A stretch of DNA of 64,000 nt, taken from assembly GCA_964562615.1 (NCBI GenBank), contig CAZLUD010000001.1, positions 129,072 to 193,071 on the forward strand, written 5' to 3'. A program made the translations under genes and the position numbers. The notes below the pieces were generated by a model that saw only the letters and a program-made list of their open reading frames with translations, was not told the origin of the DNA and ran no database searches. This document shows positions 4,017-64,000 of the stretch, piece by piece. This DNA comes from an uncultured Candidatus Saccharibacteria bacterium (GTDB taxonomy: Bacteria > Patescibacteriota > Minisyncoccia > Phycocordibacterales > UBA12088). Every line of letters starts with the position of its first letter. The stretch's first letter is position 1.

Positions 4017-5201
4017 ATGGATATCGGTATAGGCAAAAAAATCGTCACTGGCATTGATATTGGCACCTCACACATAAAGGTGGTGATTGCTGAGTACTCA
4101 CAAAAAAACCCAAGTGCCATTCCACACATACTTGGTACCGGCGCCGCTCTCTCTAAAGGACTTCGTCACGGCTACATCATCAATAAAAGCGACACCGGAA
4201 GAAGTATACGCGCAGCGCTTCATCAAGCAGAAAAAGCAGCAGGCGTAAAAGTAAAAAAGGCATACCTTGCCGTAGGAGGCGTAGGGCTAGATGAGGTGCG
4301 ATCAAGCGGAGAAAGCATAACCTCACGAGCTGATCAAGAAGTCACCAGTCTTGATATCGCTCATGCGATTGAAGACGCAGAAGAACGAGTGGCGACAAAA
4401 ATCCAAAACAGAAAAATCCTTCACGTTATCCCGCTTCGATACAGACTTGATGGCGCGCCCGTGTTGGGTCGCCCACTTGGTATGAAGGGTAACAAGCTCG
4501 AAGCAGAAGTGCTCTTTATCACCAGCTTAGAGCAGCACCTTGAAGACCTCATCAGCACCATTGAAGACAGTGGTATTAGCGTCGTTGATGCAATGGCTAG
4601 TCCCCTTGCCGCAAGTTTTGTTACCCTTACCAAATCACAAAAGGTCGCGGGTGTTATGCTTGCAAATATAGGTGCTGAGACTGTATCAGTTGCGGTATTT
4701 GAAAATAATATTCCTATTTCATTAAAGGTATTCCCGATTGGCTCAACCGACATCACCAATGATATCGCCTTAGGGCTCAAAGTATCACTTGAAGAAGCCG
4801 AGCACCTAAAGCGTGGCACGCTTAGCAACTCAGAGCATCCACAAAAAAAGCTTGATCAAATAATCTCCGCTCGTCTTTCAGACATCTTTGACCTCATTGA
4901 TGCGCATCTTTCAAAAATTGGCAGAAACGGGCTTCTCCCTGCGGGCATTATCCTCACCGGCGGAGGCTCTGGTATCACCACTGTAGAAGATATGGCTCGC
5001 GCCACATTAAAGCTCCCGTCAAAGATTGGTCACATCATCGCGCAAAACGGCAATGGGGCTAAGTTTAAAGATTCATCATGGGCAGTATCATACGGACTCA
5101 CCATATGGGGCATGAGCGCTGACGAAGATTCGTTTGGCGTTGAGGTTGCAAAAAAAACCGGGAGCACGCTTATGTCATGGATAAAGCGCTTTTTGCCGTA
5201 G
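4017..5201 (+). CDS. ftsA: cell division protein FtsA
   Basis: GIDIGTSHIKVVIAE is the actin-like phosphate-1 motif. FtsA-like architecture, and it sits immediately upstream of ftsZ. Confidence 0.9.
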   Translation: MDIGIGKKIVTGIDIGTSHIKVVIAEYSQKNPSAIPHILGTGAALSKGLRHGYIINKSDTGRSIRAALHQAEKAAGVKVKKAYLAVGGVGLDEVRSSGESITSRADQEVTSLDIAHAIEDAEERVATKIQNRKILHVIPLRYRLDGAPVLGRPLGMKGNKLEAEVLFITSLEQHLEDLISTIEDSGISVVDAMASPLAASFVTLTKSQKVAGVMLANIGAETVSVAVFENNIPISLKVFPIGSTDITNDIALGLKVSLEEAEHLKRGTLSNSEHPQKKLDQIISARLSDIFDLIDAHLSKIGRNGLLPAGIILTGGGSGITTVEDMARATLKLPSKIGHIIAQNGNGAKFKDSSWAVSYGLTIWGMSADEDSFGVEVAKKTGSTLMSWIKRFLP

Positions 5202-5391
5202 TGGTCACGTGATAGAGCCATAGTATCAACTACATACTCCAACTGCTATACACAGACGCCGTACTGTGTCCTAATAATTTTTTATCTGTTTTGATTGAGT
5301 GACACTATAGAGTTGTGTCAAGTCTTTTCATCCCCACTCCATACTGGTACTATGTCGCTACGTTAATTTACGCCCGAATAGGCCCGAAACC

Positions 5392-6606
5392 ATGAAGCAA
5401 ATCCAACCAGAAGTAGAAGCATTCGCACGTATACGCGTTGTCGGCGTAGGCGGTTCAGGTAAAAACGCGACCAACCACATGATCGACTCCAAAGTTAAAG
5501 GAGTTGAATTTATTGCGGTTAATACAGACGCGCAAGACCTTCATCACTCTCTCGCTAAAAAGAAGATACACGTAGGAAAAAATCTTACCCGAGGACTAGG
5601 CGCAGGAGGTCATCCAGATATTGGCAGAAAAGCTGCTGAAGAAACCAAGGAAGAAATCCTCGATGCACTCAAAGGCTCTGACATGGTCTTTATTACCTGC
5701 GGTATGGGAGGCGGCACAGGCACGGGCGCAAGCGCGGTAGTCGCAAGCGCAGCAAAAGAAATTGGCGCCCTCACCGTGGGGGTGGTTACCAAACCATTTT
5801 CTTTTGAAGGCCAACAGCGCATGCGCATGGCAGAGCAAGGTATCGAAAACCTCAAGAAAGAAGTGGATGCGCTCATTGTGATTCCTAACGACCGACTCCT
5901 TGCCATTGTCGACAGAGACACCAGCGTCAAGAACGCGTTTGCCCTTTGTGACGACATCCTCCTACGAGCAGTTGAAGGTATCTCAGACCTTATTACCATG
6001 CCGGGTATCGTCAACGTAGACTTTGCCGACATTAAGTCAGTTATGGAAAACGCCGGAAGCGCACTCATGGGTGTGGGTATTGCCTCAGGAGAAAAGCGCG
6101 CAGAAGAAGCAGCACATCAAGCTATCAACTCTCCCCTTCTTGAAGTATCTATTTCTGGTGCTAAAGGAGTACTCTTTGCTATTGCAGGAGGTGATGACCT
6201 AGGTATGCTTGAAGTACAAGACGCGGCAAGAGTTATCACCGAATCTATCGACCCAAATGCTCGCGTTATCTTTGGTGCTATTAAAGACGAGAAGCTAAAG
6301 AAGAATGAAATAAAGGTAACCGTTATCGCCACCGGCTTCCCTGAGGGCATGCTCTCAAAGAGCTCTTCTCTCTTTGGTATTTCTGCACCACGCAGAGTAC
6401 AGCACGAGGAGGAGCGCGAAGAGAGAAGCGTTATACACAACTCTCTTGGTGATGTTGCCTCAATGGTAAAGCCTCGCATAGAAAACAAGGAGGAGATTAC
6501 AAATGTCATCCCAGAAGAAAAAAAGGAGAATACCAATTCCACTGATGATGACGATGATGATTGGGGTGCGGTTCCAGCATTTCTTCGAAGAAGCAAGATA
6601 AAGTAG
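5392..6606 (+). CDS. ftsZ: cell division GTPase FtsZ
   Basis: GVGGSGKNA and [10 protein letters not shown] tubulin signature motifs. Acidic/Asp-rich C-terminal tail. Confidence 0.95.
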
Positions 6607-10321: not shown

Positions 10322-11074
10322 ATGAAAGTAGAATCACATGCAGTAATTGAAACTAGCAATCTATCACGGATAATATTTTCCGAGCCAATTTTGTATACAT
10401 CACCTTCAAAAGGTGAGGTAAAAATTATGAATCACGACAAAGACAGCAACATCCTTGTTGTGATTATGAATATGGACGTTCAGCACCGCGATGTAGCAAC
10501 ATTCGAATCTGAACGAGAGCTAGTACGAGTCGTTAGCCGTTTAAGCTGGGTACATAATCTTGCAATTGAAAAATATCGTATAACCGGCTATCAATATTCA
10601 GAAACAGCAAATCAAACAAATGCTGTTGTTCTTGCCACAACACTACATATCAATGCGTCAATTTCTGTAATAAAAACAGTTGGGAGGGACGGGGTGGAAA
10701 AACTTAGTACTACATTATCAAAAAACTATACTGAAGAACTAGATTCACTATTGTCTAAGTGGCGTGATGCTATTCGTCAAGAATCATCAATGATTCGGTT
10801 AGTACTTATGTATCAAATACTTGAGTCACTAGCTGGCAGAGTCCGAAGTAAGGTTGAAAAAATGATACGTGACAAAGACCCGCATATTGAATTGCGCAAT
10901 ACTGGCATAAAAAATGATCAGGTTGTAAGTGTATACACTTACCTACGCGACTGTATTCATTTAAAACCAGAAAATCCTCAGTTTCCTTTTCATGAGGTAG
11001 AAGCACATGTCATTCCCATGCAGGAACTTGTAAGAAAAGTACTTAAAGAAAAGTTTACAGACTTACCAGAGTGA
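10322..11074 (+). CDS. hypothetical protein
   Basis: 250-aa ORF immediately after the tRNA-fragment region; no recognisable domain. Confidence 0.4.
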   Translation: MKVESHAVIETSNLSRIIFSEPILYTSPSKGEVKIMNHDKDSNILVVIMNMDVQHRDVATFESERELVRVVSRLSWVHNLAIEKYRITGYQYSETANQTNAVVLATTLHINASISVIKTVGRDGVEKLSTTLSKNYTEELDSLLSKWRDAIRQESSMIRLVLMYQILESLAGRVRSKVEKMIRDKDPHIELRNTGIKNDQVVSVYTYLRDCIHLKPENPQFPFHEVEAHVIPMQELVRKVLKEKFTDLPE

Positions 11075-55262: not shown

Positions 55263-57806
55263 TTACTTTGTATCTTGATGCGTCATATAAATCGATCGGT
55301 ACGGATTAGTTTCTACTGCCGTTGCATGAAGTAGCTCAATCTGCGATCTGATCGTAGCCATTATTTCATCATCAGTCTCAGTAGTAAACCTAAGTGGGGC
55401 GCCAATAACTACCGACACTACCCCTTGGCGTGGGATGATTTCATTCTTTTTTAATATGTACGAAAGCCCATAATGAGCAATCGGAACGACTGGCACCTTC
55501 AGTGCGCGAATAAGATGCGCGGTTCCTCGCATAAACGGAAGCATAGCAGCATCATCACCTCGTCTACCCTCAGGAAACATAAGTAGTGATTCTCCACCAT
55601 CTACCACACGACCAGCGTATTGCAGCGATTTTGAAAACCCATCTTGTTGACGCAACAGAAACGCCCCTGCTCCAAATCGCACAAGCAAAAGAATACCTCG
55701 ATACCACATACGCATATACACTGACGCCTGCGGTCGGTGGTAATAGGTATCTGCAGTAGGAGTCGCAAGAAGATATCGATATCTATATGGTAGCGCTCGT
55801 ATGATAACCGAATGATCAGCACTGCTTACATGATTGGTAACAATCATGATAGGTTCCCTTGTAGTAGGAATATGCGCTCTCCCTACAACCTTTAGTGTTA
55901 TAAAGCACGCACTTATCGCGCTTTCAAGTAATGATAAAAGCACGCGAAGCGCTCTACCCATTGGAGTATGGATACCACGAAACCCTACCGCTCTGTGTGT
56001 AGTCTTTTTTCTTTCTTGTATATACCTCTCTATATCAGCAACAGTGGTATGTGAGGTTATCATTTCTTCTGCTAACTCGTAGTTATATTCACGAGCAATT
56101 GCTGCAAGAAGTTCTACCCTTCCTAATGAATCAAGTCCCACCTCACTTATGAGTGTTTGCTGAGGGGCAATAGTAGAGGCGTCCTTACCAGTAACTGATG
56201 CGAGTAAATCGTACAATCTAGACTGTCGTGACGAGCTAGACGAGCCACCTGGGGTAGTGCTAGTAACAAACTTTTTTACCAATGTTCGTTTAGTTTTGAG
56301 AGTGGTCGTTTTAGGAAATTCACGCTCATGCCAAAGACTATATCCTTGTATACGCATCGCGCTTGACAGTACATCATTTGCTCGCTCAACCACATCCTTT
56401 GCATCAGTAGTACCGTCCGCAAGTATCACTACCGCATGTATTGCTTCACCATGTTCGCGCGGCACACCAACCACGCACGCCTCCTTTACTCGTGAATCTT
56501 CCAAGAGCACACGCTCTATATCATCAGGAAATATATTGATGCCTGATGAGGAAAGGATCATTTCTTTTACTCTGCCGCTTACAACAAGATTGCCGTCATC
56601 GTCCATATAGCCGATGTCGCCTGTTTTAAACCACCCATCGCTCGTAAAGGCATCACGGGTAGCCTGTTCATGGTGATAGTACCCGGCAAAGACATTAGGA
56701 CCTTGTACCTCTATTTCTCCTTCTTTTGAAAACCGAACCGACACGTGTGGAAATTCTTTACCAACCGTACCCCACGCTTTATTGGTCGGAGAGGTAGCCG
56801 CAATCACGGGAGATGTTTCAGTGAGTCCATATCCCTCGTATATGGATATACCAACATTTCTCCAGAATGTAGCAATAGAAGGTGACAGTGGCGCACCACC
56901 AGATACCATGTACTCAAAATGAGATCCAAATGCCTTATGGATTTTTCTAAACAACATCTTTTTAACAAATAACGGTGACGTACTCGCTCGCTCGCTAAGG
57001 CGCATAAGCGTGTCGTATGTACCCGCCTCTTTTGCTCTTGCTAGCACTCCTGCATACATCGCCTCGATAAGGCGTGGTACCACCAGCATGTGTGTTATCT
57101 TTTCTTTTTTAAGAAGCACAAACAATGCTGACGCAATAATTGCGCTTGGATATACAATTGTACCCCCCAGCAAAAGCGGCACCCACAACCCCCCTACCTG
57201 CTCAAACATATGTGACAGTGGAAGCGTAGAGAGAACACGAACCCTCTTTCCAAATGAAAAATGAGTTGCCGCACCGCAAACATTTGCAGTTACATTTTTG
57301 TGGGTAAGCATAACCCCTTTTGGGTCACCAGTGGTGCCAGAAGTGTACACAATGTACGCAAGATCACTTTCCTTACATACCGAAGCAGGAATACCGATAC
57401 ATGACTCGATACAATATAAAAAATCTTCGAGCACATAGGTGGGTACCCCTATGTTCAGTAATCGATACTTACTTTTAAGCACCAATCGCGCGTGCGCCCT
57501 GGTGACAATAACCTCTGCAGAAGTACTGGTTGCTTGTACATCTATAGGGACAACTACCGCACCGATCGATAGAGCACCAAGACTTGCAACTACCCACTCG
57601 ATACCATTTAATCCCCACACCACAATCGTGTCTCCTTTATGTACACCTTGCGCGACATACCATGCGCTCGCTTTTTGTATCAGCGTATGCAATGTGGCAT
57701 ACGTATATCGAAAGGTTCGATACCCGTTATGCACCACAATCGCTTCATCCATACGCGATGCGTGTAGCGAAAGTATGTCTACAAGCGTCTTTGGATTTTG
57801 ATACAT
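55263..57806 (-). CDS. tri-domain fusion: acyl-CoA/acyl-ACP synthetase (AMP-binding) - acyl carrier protein - 1-acylglycerol-3-phosphate acyltransferase (PlsC)
   Basis: YTSGTTGDPKGV (AMP-binding). GLDSLGRVELLAAIARE (ACP Ser-attachment DSL). NHVSSAD (HX4D acyltransferase) and FPEGRRG. Confidence 0.8.
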   Translation of the reverse strand: MYQNPKTLVDILSLHASRMDEAIVVHNGYRTFRYTYATLHTLIQKASAWYVAQGVHKGDTIVVWGLNGIEWVVASLGALSIGAVVVPIDVQATSTSAEVIVTRAHARLVLKSKYRLLNIGVPTYVLEDFLYCIESCIGIPASVCKESDLAYIVYTSGTTGDPKGVMLTHKNVTANVCGAATHFSFGKRVRVLSTLPLSHMFEQVGGLWVPLLLGGTIVYPSAIIASALFVLLKKEKITHMLVVPRLIEAMYAGVLARAKEAGTYDTLMRLSERASTSPLFVKKMLFRKIHKAFGSHFEYMVSGGAPLSPSIATFWRNVGISIYEGYGLTETSPVIAATSPTNKAWGTVGKEFPHVSVRFSKEGEIEVQGPNVFAGYYHHEQATRDAFTSDGWFKTGDIGYMDDDGNLVVSGRVKEMILSSSGINIFPDDIERVLLEDSRVKEACVVGVPREHGEAIHAVVILADGTTDAKDVVERANDVLSSAMRIQGYSLWHEREFPKTTTLKTKRTLVKKFVTSTTPGGSSSSSRQSRLYDLLASVTGKDASTIAPQQTLISEVGLDSLGRVELLAAIAREYNYELAEEMITSHTTVADIERYIQERKKTTHRAVGFRGIHTPMGRALRVLLSLLESAISACFITLKVVGRAHIPTTREPIMIVTNHVSSADHSVIIRALPYRYRYLLATPTADTYYHRPQASVYMRMWYRGILLLVRFGAGAFLLRQQDGFSKSLQYAGRVVDGGESLLMFPEGRRGDDAAMLPFMRGTAHLIRALKVPVVPIAHYGLSYILKKNEIIPRQGVVSVVIGAPLRFTTETDDEIMATIRSQIELLHATAVETNPYRSIYMTHQDTK

Positions 57807-57820
57807 ATACGAGTAGTGTG

Positions 57821-58132
57821 TTAAGTAAGTAATACTACCGCTGTGGCATATTCACCATCATGACTTATTGATACACTCGTAATCGTATCATCGCCCACTC
57901 GCAAAAAGGGCGCACCACTTTCTTCGTGGCAAACCTCAAGCAGTAACCAGTCAATCTTCTTACCTATCGCCTTACAATACGCCTCCTTAACGGCAAGGTA
58001 TCCACCGGCGCGCTTTGTATCATTATGTAATGACCGCATTTCAGCATCAGTAAATAGACGCGCGCACTCTTCAGTGCTTGAAAGTAAGCGTTCTACCCGA
58101 CGTATGCTGACTAAATCTATTCCTACCCGCAT
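57821..58132 (-). CDS. acpS: holo-ACP synthase (4'-phosphopantetheinyl transferase)
   Basis: MRVGIDLVSIRRVERL and AVKEAYCKAIG ... W.DIE pattern; 103 aa; immediately upstream of the ACP-containing fusion. Confidence 0.7.
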   Translation of the reverse strand: MRVGIDLVSIRRVERLLSSTEECARLFTDAEMRSLHNDTKRAGGYLAVKEAYCKAIGKKIDWLLLEVCHEESGAPFLRVGDDTITSVSISHDGEYATAVVLLT

Positions 58133-58710: not shown

Positions 58711-59091
58711 GGGGATGATTGGCCTCGACAGTGAGTATGTGTTGCATAGTGTGCGAGTTCGTGTGAGGTGACACGGTAAAAACATCTCAACCAATACGTG
58801 CTACAAAACTTCGCACGGCAATTCTTTCACCTTTCCAGATGAAGGATTTTGCACTCGCTGTAGCCTAAGGCTCGCGACATCCTACAGAGTATTGTCTGAT
58901 AGCTTTGTAACGGTGTAATACCATCAGAACCGCAGAAAGGGTGCATCGCCTTATCTGTTAAATAATGATGCTATATGGTATCGGCTTTTGACGAATTTTC
59001 TATCGACACCACGAACCAACAAATTCGCCAAGACTTCGTAGACTCACTATGCACTCCTCTCTGGATGCGGGTTCGATTCCCGCCATCTCCA
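58711..59091 (+). ncRNA. ssrA: tmRNA (SsrA), standard one-piece
   Basis: 5' GGGGATGATTGGCCTCGACAG (tRNA-like half). Candidate tag ORF GCA-ATT ... GCACTCGCTGTAGCCTAA encodes AILSPFQMKDFALAVA-stop. 3' GGATGCGGGTTCGATTCCCGCCATCTCCA, whose acceptor pairs with the 5' GGGGATG. Confidence 0.8.
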
Positions 59092-59093
59092 CA

Positions 59094-59493
59094 AAACATA
59101 CATCAAGCGCCTTCGGGCGCTTTTTGTTTTGTGGAGATCGAGCGAGCAAACTGCTTTGCTCGCGTCGGGAATCGAAAGACGCAGGCATATCGCGAAGCGA
59201 TGCCGAGTCGTGGTCAAGAGTGCTTAGTATTTTTAGAGCAACGCGAATAAAAATAGTTAGCAACTCGTGACCGATCCGCCATCTCCACAGATTAAAACAA
59301 TACCGCCGCTTAGGCGGTTTTTGTTTTGACTGTGGAATGGAAGACGATGCCTTCGCATCGTCTGTCGGGAATCGAACGGCGGAGCGTTATACGCACGACA
59401 GAAAGGAGTACGTATCGCGAGCCGCGTCCAACAACACTTAACGAATGCAATGAGTTTAGTGATTGTGGGACGATTCCCGCCATCTCCACAAAT
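59094..59493. repeat. two tandem ~200-bp units carrying direct partial copies of the tmRNA 3' end plus inverted T-loop fragments
   Basis: ccgatccgccatctccaca at 59271 and cgattcccgccatctccacaaa at 59471. Inverted gtcgggaatcgaa at 59165 and 59364. Each unit begins with a hairpin plus T-run (59105-59125, 59304-59323). Confidence 0.8.
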
Positions 59494-59573
59494 AAAATTA
59501 CTGCCTGCTTTGCTTGGGTTTTAATTTTGTTGTGTATTTTATATTTGGAATCTAGATTTGCTATACTCCACTC

Positions 59574-60101
59574 ATGAAATCACCGACCATCGAATCTGGT
59601 TCCTATGTTATAAGACCGTTTAAGACGAGTGATGCCGAATTGTGGCAAACGTGGGATATTGATCATGAAGTGCAAGCATTTATGCCGGAGCCGTTTAATG
59701 AACCACAAGAAATTAAGGAGCAGTACGCATACATAAAAGCATGTGATGCTGATGAAGAAGGATACTACTGGTCAATTGAAACGAAGGACGGAGTCACAAT
59801 TGGTACCATCGCACTCACAGAATACAATGACTACCATGGCGTTGCTAATCTCGGTATTGTTATCGGAGATAAAAACTATTGGGGCAAAGGGGTTGCAACG
59901 GAGACCATCACTACTCTTGTCGACTATGCATTTACGAATCTAAATCTTTTCTATATTAGCGCTGAAGTTGAGGAAGGAAATATTCCGATGATGAATGTCC
60001 TAGAAAAAGTCGGGTTCAAACAAGATGGTTTATTTGAATCAGCTCGGGTAAAAAATGAAAAACGAATCAATGTTCACCATTTCAGTATTGTTAAGTGGTA
60101 A
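59574..60101 (+). CDS. GNAT acetyltransferase, RimL/RimJ-like
   Basis: SYVIRPFKTSD ... GVANLGIVIGDKNYWGKGVATE ... NIPMMNVLEKVGF matches the RimL-type GNAT. Confidence 0.8.
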   Translation: MKSPTIESGSYVIRPFKTSDAELWQTWDIDHEVQAFMPEPFNEPQEIKEQYAYIKACDADEEGYYWSIETKDGVTIGTIALTEYNDYHGVANLGIVIGDKNYWGKGVATETITTLVDYAFTNLNLFYISAEVEEGNIPMMNVLEKVGFKQDGLFESARVKNEKRINVHHFSIVKW

Positions 60102-60604
60102 TGAATATTTATATGAAAAGCATAAAAATAACCCCCATTAAACAACGAGACGCTAGTGCCTGCGGACCTACCAGTATTGAAATGACTCTGAAATACTTTG
60201 ACGTACCACATACAGTCGCGGATATTACTAGGATAACTAACTATAAAAAAGAAGGTGGCATATACAACAAACAACTGGTGGGCGTGCTACAACACTATGG
60301 CCTTAAGACAAAAGTTTTGAAGAATACCTCTTGGGAACAACTGATGGGACTAAATACCAAAGATTCTGTGATAATTCTTTCTTGGATGCTTGATGGCTAC
60401 ATTGGACACCTTAGTGTTTTGGATAATGTTGATAAAGACCATATCTATCTCGCAGAACCTACAACTGGAGAAATATTAAGGATAGGTAAGATAAAGTTTC
60501 TCAGACTCTGGTTAGACTACGAGGCTAAAGCTGAAGTACCGTTATTCCCCGAATCAAAGTCTGACATTCAACTGAGGTGGTTGTGTATTGCATCGAAACC
60601 ATAA
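60095..60604 (+). CDS. stand-alone peptidase C39-like cysteine protease
   Basis: IKQRDASACGPTSIEMTLKYFDV (Gln oxyanion plus Cys nucleophile as in C39), a later GHLSVL His and an Asp. 7-nt overlap with the GNAT gene. Confidence 0.6.
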   Translation: MVMNIYMKSIKITPIKQRDASACGPTSIEMTLKYFDVPHTVADITRITNYKKEGGIYNKQLVGVLQHYGLKTKVLKNTSWEQLMGLNTKDSVIILSWMLDGYIGHLSVLDNVDKDHIYLAEPTTGEILRIGKIKFLRLWLDYEAKAEVPLFPESKSDIQLRWLCIASKP

Positions 60605-60661
60605 GCAAAGAAAAAACCCAAAAGCCAATGAAGGCCTTGGGTTTTCAAGTTATGTCCTGAG

Positions 60662-61891
60662 TCACTTTTTCAGACTTACCCAATGCAGTACTTTCATGAG
60701 GATATGGAAGACCAGGCTGGTCGTCATATCATCACGATCGAGTGCTGGACTAAGTTCGACGACATCCATGCCAACAACCTGGTTGTGCTCAATAACCGCA
60801 CGTAACAACTTCAGCAGCGCCTGCGGGGTCATGCCGAGCGGTACAGGAGTACCAGTTCCAGGAGCGAAAGATGGGTCGAGTACATCAACGTCGAAACTGA
60901 TATAGCACTTCCTCCCTTTTGGCAGCCTAGTTGCAAGCACATTAGCCAGTCCTTCTTCGATGACGACCTGAGTTGTTGTCTGACACCTTTCTTCCCCAAG
61001 GGGAGCACCGGCAAAACCACGCACTCCAAACTGGAGCAAATGGGCAGTTGGGTTTTCATGCACAACCCGTCGCATGACGTTGCCATGATGATGCTCTGAA
61101 CCAACTTCCCACTCCCCCATGTCTGTGTGCGCATCCAGATGGATGATGACTATCTCTCCGTGGACTTCTGTACACGCACGAATGAGTGGCGCAGAGATTG
61201 AGTGGTCTCCCCCAATGAAGACAGGAAATGTACCACTCCGATGTGACAATAAAGCGCCCCGATAGCAACGCTCATAGACAGTCGCAAGAGATTCCCCCGT
61301 TCGATACGCAACATTGCCCAGATCTCCAAACGGAACTCCTTCAAGGATCACAGTCCCTAGGTCGGCGTTATACCAACCACGGTTTCTTCTGGTAAAGATA
61401 TCCCGCTCGTAAGCCAGAAACTTCGCCGAAACTTCACGGAGTCGATCCGGACCAAAGCGAGTACCGGGATTGCCGGTCGCCGCCTGGTCTAGACATACCC
61501 CCGCCACAACGATTGTTCCTTCTTCGAGACTACACACATCGACTGCAGGCGAGTACACGAACGGTGTTCGCGCACTAACAAATAAGGTTTCCCTATCGAC
61601 AACCAGCGGCTCTTCAGCTTTTCCGTCTACTACTTCAATTAGAAAGAAAGCTTCAGCAAACGCAGCAAGAATCAATAGAAATTCCTCGTACGGTTCACCC
61701 CCAGCCACTCCAAGCTCCATCGCTGCTTCATGCGTACTTTTAACTACACGGAAAGCTACGAGGATCTTCAAGGACTCCTCAGTCAGAGAAAGCCGATGAC
61801 CAGTCCGAGTGTTGTGTAGCACAACCCCATTCTCGCCATCTTCACTTTCAAGCATGAGGTGTCTTGATACAACATACGAATCAGTACTCAT
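60662..61891 (-). CDS. arginase/agmatinase-family (ureohydrolase) enzyme with N-terminal RRE/PqqD-like domain: candidate peptide arginase
   Basis: GGDHSIS, IIHLDAHTDM, SFDVDVLDPSFAPGTGTP and MDVVELSP ureohydrolase Mn-binding motifs. The N-terminal 90 aa, VVLHNTRTGHRLSLTEESLKILVAF, is PqqD-like. ATGA start/stop overlap with the upstream gene. Confidence 0.75.
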   Translation of the reverse strand: MSTDSYVVSRHLMLESEDGENGVVLHNTRTGHRLSLTEESLKILVAFRVVKSTHEAAMELGVAGGEPYEEFLLILAAFAEAFFLIEVVDGKAEEPLVVDRETLFVSARTPFVYSPAVDVCSLEEGTIVVAGVCLDQAATGNPGTRFGPDRLREVSAKFLAYERDIFTRRNRGWYNADLGTVILEGVPFGDLGNVAYRTGESLATVYERCYRGALLSHRSGTFPVFIGGDHSISAPLIRACTEVHGEIVIIHLDAHTDMGEWEVGSEHHHGNVMRRVVHENPTAHLLQFGVRGFAGAPLGEERCQTTTQVVIEEGLANVLATRLPKGRKCYISFDVDVLDPSFAPGTGTPVPLGMTPQALLKLLRAVIEHNQVVGMDVVELSPALDRDDMTTSLVFHILMKVLHWVSLKK

Positions 61892-62997
61892 GACTCTCCT
61901 CTCTTGTGCCCACAGTATGGGCACGTATGCCGTTTTCTGAATTTGCGGAAGTTGATGTCGTAGGTACGAAAATCCAACTCCGCAACCTTATTGGTCATCG
62001 TTGGTTTCGAGAAACCAGTAACGACCTTCACCGCATCCAATACATGATAGTTTGCGGTGATCGCGCAAATAGCAGCGATATTTCCACCCTTAATGTGCGT
62101 ATTAGTAACTGCCAATTGCTGATACTCAGCTCGATGAAGCTGTTTATTAAGCGCGTGCTCATAGCAGTACCAACACGCTGATTCTCCAGGAATGACCGTT
62201 GGTCCGATAAAGCTTAAGTGTCCATCATACCCACCGCAGAGAATATGAGGCACTTGTAGCTCAAAGCAAACTTCCGTGACAATCCGATTAACCACATCCG
62301 TACTCGGATCATCCGCACAGGAGATAATCAAACTGCTACCTCGCATCCCCACAAGGCAATCTTGTGGTGACACAACTTGCTGTGCAATACCCTGGACTGA
62401 GATTTCAGCATCAATGGAACAGAGTTTTCGTTCCGCCACTTGAACCTTTAGGGATCCGACGTCATCAACATTGAACAAACACTGTCTGTTCAAGTTTGAT
62501 ATTTCTACTACGTCTGGATCGATGAATGTAAAGTTACGGGCACCAGCCAGAGCAAGACCTTGGGCAACCCAAGTACCAATCCCTCCCAAACCGATTATCG
62601 CAACCCGCGCTCTATGTAAACGCTCTTGCATCACTTCGCGGGATTGGGTTCTTGTCTCAAACTCCGCAAAGAAATTACGCTGGGTTGCAAATTTATCTTG
62701 GTCAATAACGGCAGGATGCTTTTTGGTAGCCAGTACCCGACTCTTTTGGAGTACAGATACCAGTCGCCGCACCTCTATGATTGGGAGGCCTGCTTTCCTT
62801 GCTATCTCTTCGATTGAATGCAAACCATCAAAATATTGCAAGCAACCAAAAGCCTCTTTGTTAAGTTGAAACGGCAGGACAACACTACTTGCATTGAAGA
62901 GAAAGTTCACTTCATAGACATCTCGAACACCTCTGTACAAGACAGAGATACTGTCTTTGACCCGTGGAAACACTGCATGGACTCCTTCCGTAGACAT
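61888..62997 (-). CDS. ThiF/MoeB/MccB-like E1 adenylyltransferase with N-terminal RRE-like peptide-binding domain and C-terminal Cys4 zinc site
   Basis: ARVAIIGLGGIGTWVAQGLALAGARNFTFIDPDVVEISNLNRQ (E1 nucleotide-binding). CWYC ... CPYC. The N-terminal ~110 aa, FNASSVVLPFQLNKEAF ... SIEEIARKAGLPIIEVRRLV, is winged-helix/RRE-like. Confidence 0.8.
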   Translation of the reverse strand: MSTEGVHAVFPRVKDSISVLYRGVRDVYEVNFLFNASSVVLPFQLNKEAFGCLQYFDGLHSIEEIARKAGLPIIEVRRLVSVLQKSRVLATKKHPAVIDQDKFATQRNFFAEFETRTQSREVMQERLHRARVAIIGLGGIGTWVAQGLALAGARNFTFIDPDVVEISNLNRQCLFNVDDVGSLKVQVAERKLCSIDAEISVQGIAQQVVSPQDCLVGMRGSSLIISCADDPSTDVVNRIVTEVCFELQVPHILCGGYDGHLSFIGPTVIPGESACWYCYEHALNKQLHRAEYQQLAVTNTHIKGGNIAAICAITANYHVLDAVKVVTGFSKPTMTNKVAELDFRTYDINFRKFRKRHTCPYCGHKRGES

Positions 62998-63082
62998 CCC
63001 GAACCTTTCTGTACAAGACAGAATATGATTCTATGCGAAAAGTACTATACATTAGTGACATGTCAAGGCAAACATAAAAATA

Positions 63083-63111
63083 TTGACAAAGATAACAAGT
63101 GCAACTATTCT
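63083..63111 (+). promoter_or_regulatory. sigma70-like promoter for the small peptide gene
   Basis: TTGACA at 63083-63088, 17-nt spacer, TATTCT at 63106-63111. Confidence 0.4.
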
Positions 63112-63164
63112 TCAAATAAACAAGCAAGTGGGTTGCTTGTTTCAACCCTCATCAGGAGAATCCT

Positions 63165-63311
63165 GTGCAACAGAGTGTTCCATCGATAAAGACTGGACCA
63201 AAGAATAATTCGAAAGACATGGCAGTCGATCTCAAGAAAGTGGTAATCAAGCGACTGCAACGTCGACACAGTGATGTCTACATGCGTGGACTGCGTCGTC
63301 CCCGTGCGTAA
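63165..63311 (+). CDS. 48-aa Arg/Lys-rich small peptide, candidate RiPP precursor (GTG start)
   Basis: RBS aggaga 5 nt upstream of the GTG start. MQQSVPSIKTGPKNNSKDMAVDLKKVVIKRLQRRHSDVYMRGLRRPRA. Promoter upstream and a strong terminator 25 nt downstream. Divergent from the enzyme genes. Confidence 0.35.
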   Translation: MQQSVPSIKTGPKNNSKDMAVDLKKVVIKRLQRRHSDVYMRGLRRPRA

Positions 63312-63335
63312 TTGGCCAATAGTCTCTGGTCAAGG

Positions 63336-63366
63336 GCGGAAACCAGATGTGGTTTCCGCCTTTTTC
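63336..63366 (+). terminator. rho-independent terminator
   Basis: ggcggaaacc-agatgt-ggtttccgcc followed by tttttc. Confidence 0.8.
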
Positions 63367-63633
63367 ATTTGCTATATAAACGCAGAACAACTAATCATCT
63401 CGCTAATGTAGATCCATGGCGATTTTAAACGCGTTACCATGGACGACGTAAATGACGCGCTCAAATGGCTAAGACCTGATCGAAGATGGACACTCATAAC
63501 ACAGCCGTAGAGGCAACTCCCCACCTTACAGATTGGCAAACCAATCTGTAAGGTGTTTTTTTATGCCGATAATCATACTTTATCCAATGAAATATCCTCC
63601 ACAGATTGGTGTAATAAGAGTAGTATGCGGGGT

Positions 63634-64000
63634 ATGGAGTCCGAAAGCGATGAAATAGTAGCGGGCAAAGTGCAATCGGGCGATACCGACGCTTTTGGGG
63701 TATTGATGGATAGGTATGAGGCAAAAATAACCCGTTATGCGAGTAAGTTTTTGTACTCGTACGATGATAGACTCGATGCCGTACAAGAGGTATTTCTTCG
63801 GGCGTACACCCACATTCAAAGTTTCAAAACACACGAGAAATTCTCTCCATGGTTATATCGCATTGCGCATAATACATTTCTCAATATCATACGCACACAA
63901 GGAAGAGAAAAAATATCATTTGTTGATCTCGATATCCTCTTCCCTTCCGGTATCCCTGATGAGCAAGAAGAAAGAACCATGCTCTCTACTGAGTATCCGC
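63634..64000 (+). CDS. ECF-type RNA polymerase sigma factor (partial, runs off the window end)
   Basis: DAFGVLMDRYEAKITRYASKFL ... VQEVFLRAYTHIQSF ... FSPWLYRIAHNTFLNIIR matches sigma-70 region 2. Confidence 0.7.
   Translation, partial: MESESDEIVAGKVQSGDTDAFGVLMDRYEAKITRYASKFLYSYDDRLDAVQEVFLRAYTHIQSFKTHEKFSPWLYRIAHNTFLNIIRTQGREKISFVDLDILFPSGIPDEQEERTMLSTEYP

Follow-up and report, generated by a model that had tools for sequence, protein, structure and literature searches.

A candidate RiPP cassette pairing an RRE-arginase with an RRE-ThiF enzyme next to the tmRNA gene of an uncultured Saccharibacteria bacterium

Genes of the cassette

Five genes lie together at positions 59574-63366 of a 64,000-nt stretch of contig CAZLUD010000001.1 from an uncultured Candidatus Saccharibacteria bacterium (assembly GCA_964562615.1). 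This stretch is referred to below as the window, and positions are those of the window unless a locus is named. An initial annotation had read the group as a cluster for a peptide that is made on the ribosome and modified after translation (RiPP); the listing of open reading frames (ORFs) and direct reading of the sequence placed all five genes where it had put them. The core of the cassette consists of a precursor peptide gene and the genes for two enzymes, an arginase and a ThiF/MccB-like adenylating enzyme, each of which carries an N-terminal RiPP recognition element (RRE); the genes for a C39-type peptidase and a GNAT acetyltransferase are accessory. Computation shows the domain folds, the intact catalytic motifs, and the strict co-occurrence and conservation of the three core components. 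We consider it rather probable that the genes form a conserved RiPP cassette of ~3.8 kb, in which the Arg-rich precursor is modified by the arginase and the ThiF-like enzyme along the pathway proposed below, taken as a whole. The features of the cassette are as follows.

59574-60101, plus strand: GNAT of 175 aa, Acetyltransf_3, RimJ/RimL-like (PF13302, E 2.2e-28); accessory gene
60095-60604, plus strand: stand-alone C39-type cysteine peptidase (PF03412, E 3.9e-11); accessory gene
60662-61891, minus strand: RRE-arginase fusion of 409 aa (PF00491, E 5e-63, residues 127-401, at 60689-61513)
~61607-61891, minus strand: RRE of the arginase (residues 1-95)
61888-62973, minus strand: RRE-ThiF/MccB-like adenylating enzyme of 361 aa, counted from GTG 62973 (the ORF reaches ATG 62997)
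~62734-62973, minus strand: RRE of the ThiF-like enzyme
61921-62637, minus strand: E1 domain of the ThiF-like enzyme (PF00899, E 6e-44, residues 121-359 of the longer ORF)
63071-63044, minus strand: promoter-like site for the ThiF and arginase genes (consensus scan, 9/12 matches; pattern only)
63083-63111, plus strand: promoter-like site for the precursor gene (consensus scan, 10/12 matches; pattern only)
63165-63311, plus strand: precursor peptide gene of 48 codons, with a GTG start after an AGGAG Shine-Dalgarno sequence, divergent from the ThiF gene
63225-63257, plus strand: leader motif VDLKKVVIKRL, within the precursor gene
63285-63308, plus strand: conserved C-terminal core RGLRRPRA, within the precursor gene
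63332-63363, plus strand: intrinsic terminator of the precursor gene (14-bp stem, then a T run)

The Shine-Dalgarno sequence, promoter-like site and terminator that the initial annotation had assigned to the precursor gene are all present, and the ATGA shared by the ThiF stop and the arginase start was read directly in the sequence at 61888-61891. For the ThiF gene, GTG 62973 is the likelier start, with AAGGAG lying 7 nt upstream and homologues beginning with MFPxIKD. The accessory proteins were correctly identified as a C39 peptidase and a RimL-like GNAT, while the 7-nt overlap reported for their genes depends on a GTG start of the C39 gene; ATG 60101 or 60113 is a likelier start, homologues beginning at a Met that matches ATG 60113. 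A 32-nt direct repeat (62915-62946 and 62991-63022, 88% identical, 76 nt spacing) straddles the ThiF start region. Both of its copies hold a short palindrome, TCTGT...ACAGA, and may represent an operator or an element of the 5′ untranslated region.

Precursor family and modifying enzymes

The precursor was sought in two ways. The loci (numbered with the prefix L) that had been found via arginase homologues were searched by tblastn for the 48-aa peptide and then scanned with a regular expression. A small ORF ending in RG(L/V)RR(R/P)RA-stop adjoins the enzyme genes in the window and in L001, L003-L007, L087, L088 and L090, which is to say in all 10 of the ThiF-containing loci of this enzyme-homology set that cover the site of the precursor gene. 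The sole ThiF-containing locus without it is L002, whose sequence begins at the ThiF gene. Its placement varies: the ORF is divergent from the ThiF gene in the window and L090, co-directional and just upstream of it in L001, L003, L087 and L088, and downstream of the arginase gene in L005 and L007. The second search scanned metagenomes with the back-translated peptide pattern alone and returned true precursors in 20 of 21 stretches, with ThiF and arginase genes beside each one that had enough flank; the remaining stretch, L098, is a chance match to the pattern and was set aside. A search for homologous clusters with a conserved small ORF had been suggested in the initial annotation, and a precursor was found at each locus with enough flank. 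This conserved adjacent precursor, together with the RRE domains described below, bears out the RiPP-type assignment.

The precursors of 24 loci, where they adjoin ThiF and arginase genes, align without gaps over their last 28 residues. They have in common a strand-like leader motif, h-D-h-x-K-h-x-I-x-x-L, and the C-terminal octapeptide RG[LV]RR[RPT]RA, which always stands directly before the stop codon, so that 24 of 24 end in Ala. At position -12 or -13 the aligned sequences keep an acidic residue. Pairwise differences over the last eight codons amount to 808 synonymous and 159 nonsynonymous, a count that includes loci recovered with the motif-fixing pattern, which lowers the nonsynonymous figure; the loci found by enzyme homology were not selected by the motif, and they carry the same octapeptide. 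The predominance of synonymous differences argues for selection on the peptide and not on an RNA or DNA motif. As far as the sequences allow a judgement, the small ORF is a genuine precursor under peptide-level purifying selection. The window peptide has 48 residues and ends in Ala48. Its length is supported by the alignment of the GTG start with the ATG of five relatives that share MQQ(S/T/I)VPS; the initial annotation had given the same length and eight Arg residues, and the count is seven. Other precursor subfamilies are ~30 residues long. The only invariant Gly is preceded by Arg, no GG, GA or GS site is present, and the core RGLRRPRA lacks Cys, Ser and Thr. The exact 48-aa peptide of the window was absent from the protein collection.

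Pfam gave no match for either N-terminal region of the window enzymes, and when the N-terminal sequences were scanned singly, PqqD was matched in 1 of 32 members (E 0.008). AlphaFold2 models of the N-termini, built from 32-sequence alignments, reached a pLDDT of 84 for the arginase and 87 for the ThiF-like enzyme, and both consist of 3-4 strands followed by three helices. The top Foldseek matches of the arginase N-terminus are the RREs of TigE, TruD, MccB, TbiB1, LynD, PqqD, SuiB, ThcOx, PbtF, TbtB, CteB and MibB. By hhalign, the two N-terminal domains are also homologues of one another (probability 95.5%, E 1.4e-8). The profile of the arginase domain matches the N-terminus of the radical S-adenosylmethionine (rSAM) maturase TigE in the PDB (E 1.5e-4) and, in a library of 1.84 billion proteins, domains of rSAM/SPASM maturases that are either N-terminal or internal. 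Both enzymes begin, according to these models, with an RRE fold, as had been claimed from the letters alone.

Among solved structures the ThiF-like enzyme is nearest to MccB (E 2e-27) and PaaA (2.5e-19), with ThiF and MoeB further off; its best PDB matches are the MccB entries 3H5A, 3H5N and 6OM4, and both of its CxxC pairs align with the MccB zinc site. An E1 enzyme with a Cys4 zinc site and the architecture of MccB is what the initial annotation had described. Its scores with the NCBIfam equivalog models fall far below the cut-offs for both ThiF (TIGR02356, 98.7 vs 275) and MoeB (TIGR02355, 82.6 vs 377), and no ThiS or MoaD partner was found among the called genes of any locus, which tells against activation of a sulfur carrier, an alternative that had been kept in view. 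The enzyme passes the domain model TIGR03882 of the thiazole/oxazole-modified microcin (TOMM) type (43.5 vs 36.9 bits) and fails that of SagC (TIGR03603, 51 vs 188). The sequence comparisons support an MccB-like rather than a ThiF/MoeB-like assignment. In 25 family members there is little or no variation in the motif GxGGxG, D152, N160/R163/Q164, K176, the CAD motif and the four Cys; because these ATP-binding and catalytic residues and the four Cys are kept, the window enzyme should be active in adenylation.

PF00491 enzymes hydrolyse guanidino groups, and PF00491 is the only domain found by the Pfam scan (E<=1) in the arginase-family protein, whose ~120 N-terminal residues remained unmatched. 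The complete ureohydrolase catalytic domain that had been proposed is present: the metal-ligand motifs GGDH, DAHxD and DxDxxDP are invariant across 25 homologues, as is E379. The likeness to OspR-type peptide arginases did not hold, since PF12640, the OspR family, found no match in the same scan. The catalytic domain is nearest to agmatinases and guanidino-acid hydrolases and scores just above the cut-off of the agmatinase equivalog TIGR01230 (182.2 vs 174.3 bits). The N-extended arginases P0085 and P0087, as at locus L089, were considered as family members; they occur without ThiF and precursor and were treated as a different system. At L089 (6001-7224) such arginase-family proteins of Deltaproteobacteria and Rhodobacter, ~400 aa long with an N-terminal extension, adjoin a gene for a DsbA/thioredoxin-like protein, and they may belong to a separate peptide- or protein-directed arginase system.

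The two enzyme genes overlap by 4 nt in the window, L001, L005 and L088, and are adjacent in all other loci. In P0212 (775 aa) the domains lie in one chain, with the RRE-ThiF part (115-354), a second RRE (365-461) and the arginase (493-767) in succession; from its sequence this appears to be a natural fusion of both enzymes or else to stem from a frameshift at the ATGA junction. The family is a small one: 24 representatives matched the arginase-RRE profile at E<=1e-10 among the 1.84 billion proteins, and all organism names attached to family members are Patescibacteria (Kaiserbacteria, Paceibacterota, Parcubacteria and Saccharibacteria). A scan of genome contigs with the full arginase alignment, by catalytic-motif patterns, returned mostly ordinary agmatinases, the sole true fusion being that of L007 (Saccharibacteria).

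The accessory genes vary from locus to locus, with C39 only, GNAT only, both, or neither (L088). The C39 protein has 163-169 aa, no ABC transporter domain and a family-specific C-terminal motif, DIQLRWM. Conserved in eight homologues are Gln and Cys (KQR..CGP), His (GH[FL]S) and an acidic residue (LA[DE]P), which is Glu in place of Asp in the proteins of the window and L090. The GNAT, called RimJ/RimL family in the source annotation, is found in the window-type loci and in L005, L007, L094, L100 and L101, and is absent from the others. The window GNAT (59574-60101) is 62-70% identical to those of L005 (7504-8025), L007 (7402-7914) and L100 (612-1133), above the 31-38% identity of the ThiF and arginase proteins of the same three loci to those of the window; the GNAT is either unusually constrained or was exchanged separately from the enzymes.

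Other neighbours, namely genes for an aspartyl-tRNA synthetase (AspRS), HIT, Zeta-toxin, TrmB and PALP proteins, were considered as core or immunity genes and rejected, being conserved only among near-identical loci. A TrmB-family regulator gene and one for a short pyridoxal-phosphate-dependent (PALP) enzyme, overlapping by 8 nt and divergent from the precursor, form a pair in L001 (2946-4503), L003 (2950-4507) and L110 (586-2140). The pair is limited to one closely related subgroup, and L003 also has genes for an AspRS-type synthetase and a HIT hydrolase nearby. In L003 the ThiF gene (4652-6001) is called as 449 aa, a call that runs through the precursor gene. Source annotations of family members read 'agmatinase' and 'molybdopterin-synthase adenylyltransferase'. 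Public records thus misname the cassette genes (agmatinase, MoeB) and leave the precursor uncalled or, as in L003, swallowed by an over-long ThiF call.

Proposed pathway and competing explanations

In the proposed pathway the RRE of each of the two translationally coupled enzymes would dock on the precursor leader. The PF00491 ureohydrolase would hydrolyse the guanidino group of at least one invariant core Arg, giving ornithine and urea, and this conversion on the peptide is the step that we regard as quite probable. The MccB-like ThiF enzyme would use ATP to adenylate a carboxylate, most likely the α-carboxylate of the C-terminal Ala48; we lean slightly towards activation at the C-terminal carboxylate. 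The newly unmasked δ-amine of ornithine could then capture the acyl-adenylate within the same molecule and close a C-terminal macrolactam, which we put forward tentatively and with some doubt. The stand-alone C39 peptidase, where present, might remove the leader, perhaps by a cut behind the invariant Gly that would leave L-R-R-(R/P)-R-A; the case for this cut is weak, because the site is not a canonical double-glycine. The GNAT might acetylate a free amine of the product (ornithine, as tailoring) or detoxify the product for its producer. Our confidence in the roles of these last two proteins is low.

There are precedents for the chemistry. The ThiF-like RiPP enzymes that have been characterised act by adenylating a carboxylate, in most cases that of the C-terminus, which a nucleophile then attacks (PMC12150305, PMC12596934), and the acyl-adenylate formed by EnfB is readily captured by free primary amines (PMC11256085). 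The PF00491 enzyme KgrD converts Arg to ornithine in a peptide (PMC12703449), and in the selidamides the action of an arginase is followed by GNAT acylation of the ornithine (PMC8784127).

Several points weigh against the pathway. All chemistry of the cassette is inferred. The conserved acidic residue or Asp at -12 or -13 offers the ThiF-like enzyme a second carboxylate, and the precursor is without the double-glycine site that C39 substrates typically have. As a nucleophile, Lys would be simpler than an ornithine derived from Arg, which leaves the arginase step unexplained. The C39 and GNAT genes are each missing from some loci, and the cassette encodes no exporter. Since the catalytic domain narrowly passes the agmatinase equivalog cut-off, a small-molecule guanidine substrate may also be considered for the arginase on its sequence; the additional RRE and the peptide setting speak against a role of the predicted enzyme on free agmatine.

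Neither the pairing of ThiF with an arginase nor a PF00491 enzyme fused to an RRE was found described in the open-access literature searched, which included the 2025 reviews of ThiF-type RiPPs, RRE-Finder and the papers on peptide arginases. The enzyme superfamilies and the RiPP logic are familiar, the cluster operating in the manner of a ThiF-type RiPP pathway; the precursor family and the enzyme pairing are new, and the ring-forming outcome is probably new as well. Like the window enzyme, MccB (microcin C7; 3H5A, 6OM4), PaaA, GrcB, EnfB and IndF combine an N-terminal RRE with an E1 domain and a Cys4 zinc site, and MccB-like systems, as here, encode a short precursor next door that is probably activated at its C-terminal carboxylate. 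The window precursor, however, ends in Ala rather than the Asn used by MccB, so phosphoramidate chemistry is not expected, and it is without the EEN (PaaA), Glu-Cys (GrcB), WIVI (EnfB) and Trp...Ile (IndF) motifs. Unlike the ThiF-type RiPP systems in the 2025 reviews, the ThiF-like enzyme of this family is always paired with an RRE-arginase.

The closest functional analogue of the arginase is, by analogy of description, KgrD of the enteropeptin pathway, a Mn-type PF00491 enzyme that makes peptide ornithine in a RiPP pathway (PMC12703449). The substrate of KgrD is a thiomorpholine-modified Arg and its partners are a radical-SAM enzyme and a methyltransferase, whereas the partner here is a ThiF-like enzyme; the window arginase is also set apart, in a comparison made by description, by its own fused RRE and its agmatinase-like domain. 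Arginases of the OspR type (PF12640; landornamide, selidamides, FlmR/OhkR) carry out the same proposed reaction, Arg to ornithine in a RiPP core, but no RRE is described for them (PMC12703449, PMC10028609), leader binding being proposed in the dimer cleft. The C39 domains of peptidase-containing ABC transporters share with the window protein a papain-like fold and the Gln, Cys, His and acidic catalytic residues; the window protein differs in standing alone without a transporter domain and in the lack of a GG, GA or GS site in its presumed substrate, the precursor.

Of the competing explanations, we hold it unlikely, though less so than the others, that the two enzymes act independently, so that the arginase makes ornithine and the ThiF-like enzyme carries out some other C-terminal or Asp reaction, such as imide formation, external amidation, thiocarboxylate formation or an Asp-to-ornithine isopeptide bond. 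Five different post-adenylation outcomes had been described for ThiF-like RiPP enzymes by late 2025; EnfB yields an imide and can also use free amines for amidation, the carboxylate that PaaA activates is on a side chain, and the acidic residue at -12 or -13 is conserved. Set against this, the strict pairing, the translational coupling and the occasional fusion suggest consecutive steps on one motif, and that motif is always exactly C-terminal. A Trojan-horse system like microcin C is improbable. In such a system the ThiF-like enzyme would attach a nucleotide to the peptide C-terminus, as the initial annotation had suggested, and the GNAT would provide self-immunity of the MccE type by acetylating the processed aminoacyl-nucleotide. 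MccB is the nearest solved relative and has the RRE, E1 and zinc architecture in common with the window enzyme, the GNAT is of the RimJ/RimL type, and genes for an AspRS-type synthetase (near two loci) and a HIT hydrolase (near L003) would suit the idea. The chemistry of MccB needs the side-chain amide of a C-terminal Asn (PMC11256085), which the succinimide and the N-P bond require; in its place, however, all 24 precursors have Ala, and this residue, together with the lack of an exporter, is why we do not read the cassette as a microcin C cluster. Among the called genes of 10 loci there is no MccC, MccD, MccF (S66 peptidase) or exporter, many loci have no GNAT, conservation does not extend to the AspRS and HIT neighbours, and the obligatory arginase would be left without a role.

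A peptide-tagging system, in which the E1-like enzyme would activate the peptide C-terminus for ligation to an amine on a target protein or metabolite and the C39 protein would act as a processing or deconjugating peptidase, analogously to bacterial ubiquitin-like systems, appears very improbable. It would fit E1-type chemistry on a C-terminal carboxylate, the lack of an exporter and the partial similarity to Cap2 E1-E2 defence models that PADLOC reported for the E1 protein (best E 7.5e-18, over ~100 residues of Rossmann fold only). The Pfam scan of the cassette proteins found neither an E2 or JAB domain nor a beta-grasp protein, several loci have no C39, and the RREs, the arginase and a short precursor made up of leader and core are in keeping with RiPP logic instead. 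A reading of the cassette as a defence system was rejected too, PADLOC having given only this partial E1 similarity. Ordinary metabolism, with an agmatinase (SpeB) and a sulfur-carrier activator of the MoeB/ThiF type as chance neighbours, is scarcely credible: it would agree with the source annotations and the TIGR01230 score just above the cut-off, and is countered by the RREs on both proteins, the ThiF/MoeB equivalog scores, the missing ThiS/MoaD, a conserved precursor that is always adjacent, and a cassette that acts as a mobile unit. A cyclodehydratase cluster of the TOMM or linear azol(in)e-containing peptide type was dismissed because YcaO is absent from every locus; the SagC score is also far below the cut-off and the core has no Cys, Ser or Thr. 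More generally, the called genes of the loci include no YcaO, E2, JAB or transporter gene.

Returning to the RiPP pathway with consecutive arginase and ThiF steps, its most far-reaching form would be a RiPP class described nowhere before and confined, among named sources, to the candidate phyla radiation: an RRE-arginase would unmask an ornithine amine and a ThiF-like enzyme would close a C-terminal macrolactam, yielding a very small, highly cationic cyclic product, and the genes would travel as a ~4-kb, integrase-free cassette inserted at tRNA or tmRNA genes, at their 3′ ends. In this full form the proposal is speculative. Were it true, the product core might be as short as six residues (L-R/Orn-R/Orn-P/R-R/Orn-A, where Orn is ornithine), the ThiF outcomes would rise to six, the addition possibly being an ATP-driven lactam of ornithine, peptide engineering would gain a compact leader-guided PF00491 arginase, and Patescibacteria would have one of their few conserved specialised-metabolite cassettes. 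The system is compact: its precursor has 30-48 residues, and its two enzymes have ~360 and ~410. Patescibacteria are organisms with minimal genomes that live on other cells, attached to them, and to our knowledge very little has been learned of their chemical interactions. New chemistry for peptide macrocyclisation is coming from ThiF-like enzymes at a quickly rising pace, and peptide arginases are wanted as tools for installing ornithine.

Mobility and genomic setting

Upstream of the GNAT gene lie a transfer-messenger RNA (tmRNA) gene and copies of its 3′ end that resemble attachment (att) sites, as the initial annotation had noted.

58711-59094, plus strand: tmRNA gene (ARAGORN; Rfam RF00023, 84.5 bits, E 2.3e-32), its 3′ end pointing at the cassette
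59276-59296, plus strand: partial copy of the tmRNA 3′ end (repeat search), in a tandem unit of ~200 nt
59471-59492, plus strand: att-like repeat, identical to the tmRNA 3′ end over 22 nt and lying 81 nt upstream of the GNAT start

The last 22 nt of the tmRNA thus recur exactly once and in part once more, and two 19-mer matches to the 3′ end compare with 0.02 expected by chance. The copies belong to tandem units of ~200 nt, with the repeat families D2, D4 and D6 spaced 196-201 nt. After the tmRNA, the region 59074-59573 holds two further tandem units, each with a copy of the tmRNA 3′ end as its last part; of the three tmRNA ends, the first and the second are each followed by a terminator-like hairpin (59105-59122 and 59302-59318). 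These units look like stacked att remnants of repeated integration and excision.

A blastn comparison of the window with L090, L093, L095 and L097 showed similarity that begins at the GNAT gene and ends at ~63378, just past the precursor terminator. The enzymes of these four loci are 76-87% identical to those of the window, and the flanking genes differ. L090, part of the complete Kaiserbacteria genome CP064968.1, has the same five-gene cassette as a bracketed mini-island of ~4 kb without an integrase. On one side stands a tRNA-Arg(gcg) gene (10458-10531) whose 3′ end (10458-10480) points at the GNAT gene, the same geometry as that of the tmRNA in the window. On the other side are two exact 23-nt copies of the tRNA end (6133-6155 and 6312-6334) and a 78% copy (6483-6505), in tandem units of ~175 nt. 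Because similarity stops at the cassette ends, the flanks differ and L090 is bracketed by tRNA-end copies, the sequences indicate that the cassette is a mobile unit tied to tRNA or tmRNA sites. L090 shows where the unit ends on either side. In the window its boundaries are only suggested, because all tmRNA-end copies lie on the tmRNA side and no right-hand att copy follows the precursor up to position 64000. Of the acquired island that had been proposed, the different genomic places of close relatives, next to tRNA-like genes, support the acquisition; the boundaries were recovered from L090 and not from the window itself. No integrase is present in the cassette. Carriage by phages was considered and rejected, the collection of viral contigs having given no match to the precursor pattern.

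The enzyme genes had also been described as richer in GC than their surroundings. This holds for the arginase gene, at 50.8% in the top 1.5% of windows, but not for the ThiF gene (46.2%) or the GNAT and C39 genes (39.2%, in the bottom 2%). The cluster as a whole has 45.5% GC, compared with 44.4% for the window, and there is no consistent signal of foreign origin.

Two minor observations concern the flanks. Between the precursor gene and a sigma-factor-like ORF that starts at ~63640, a strong terminator-like hairpin with a 15-bp stem and a T run lies on the plus strand at 63522-63555, with no evident ORF upstream and no Rfam match there. Directly upstream of SmpB and the tmRNA, within 55263-58132, an 847-aa fusion protein is encoded that adjoins a holo-acyl-carrier-protein synthase-like gene (57821-58132); read by eye, its translation resembles an acyl-CoA synthetase/AMP-ligase joined to a carrier protein and an acyltransferase.

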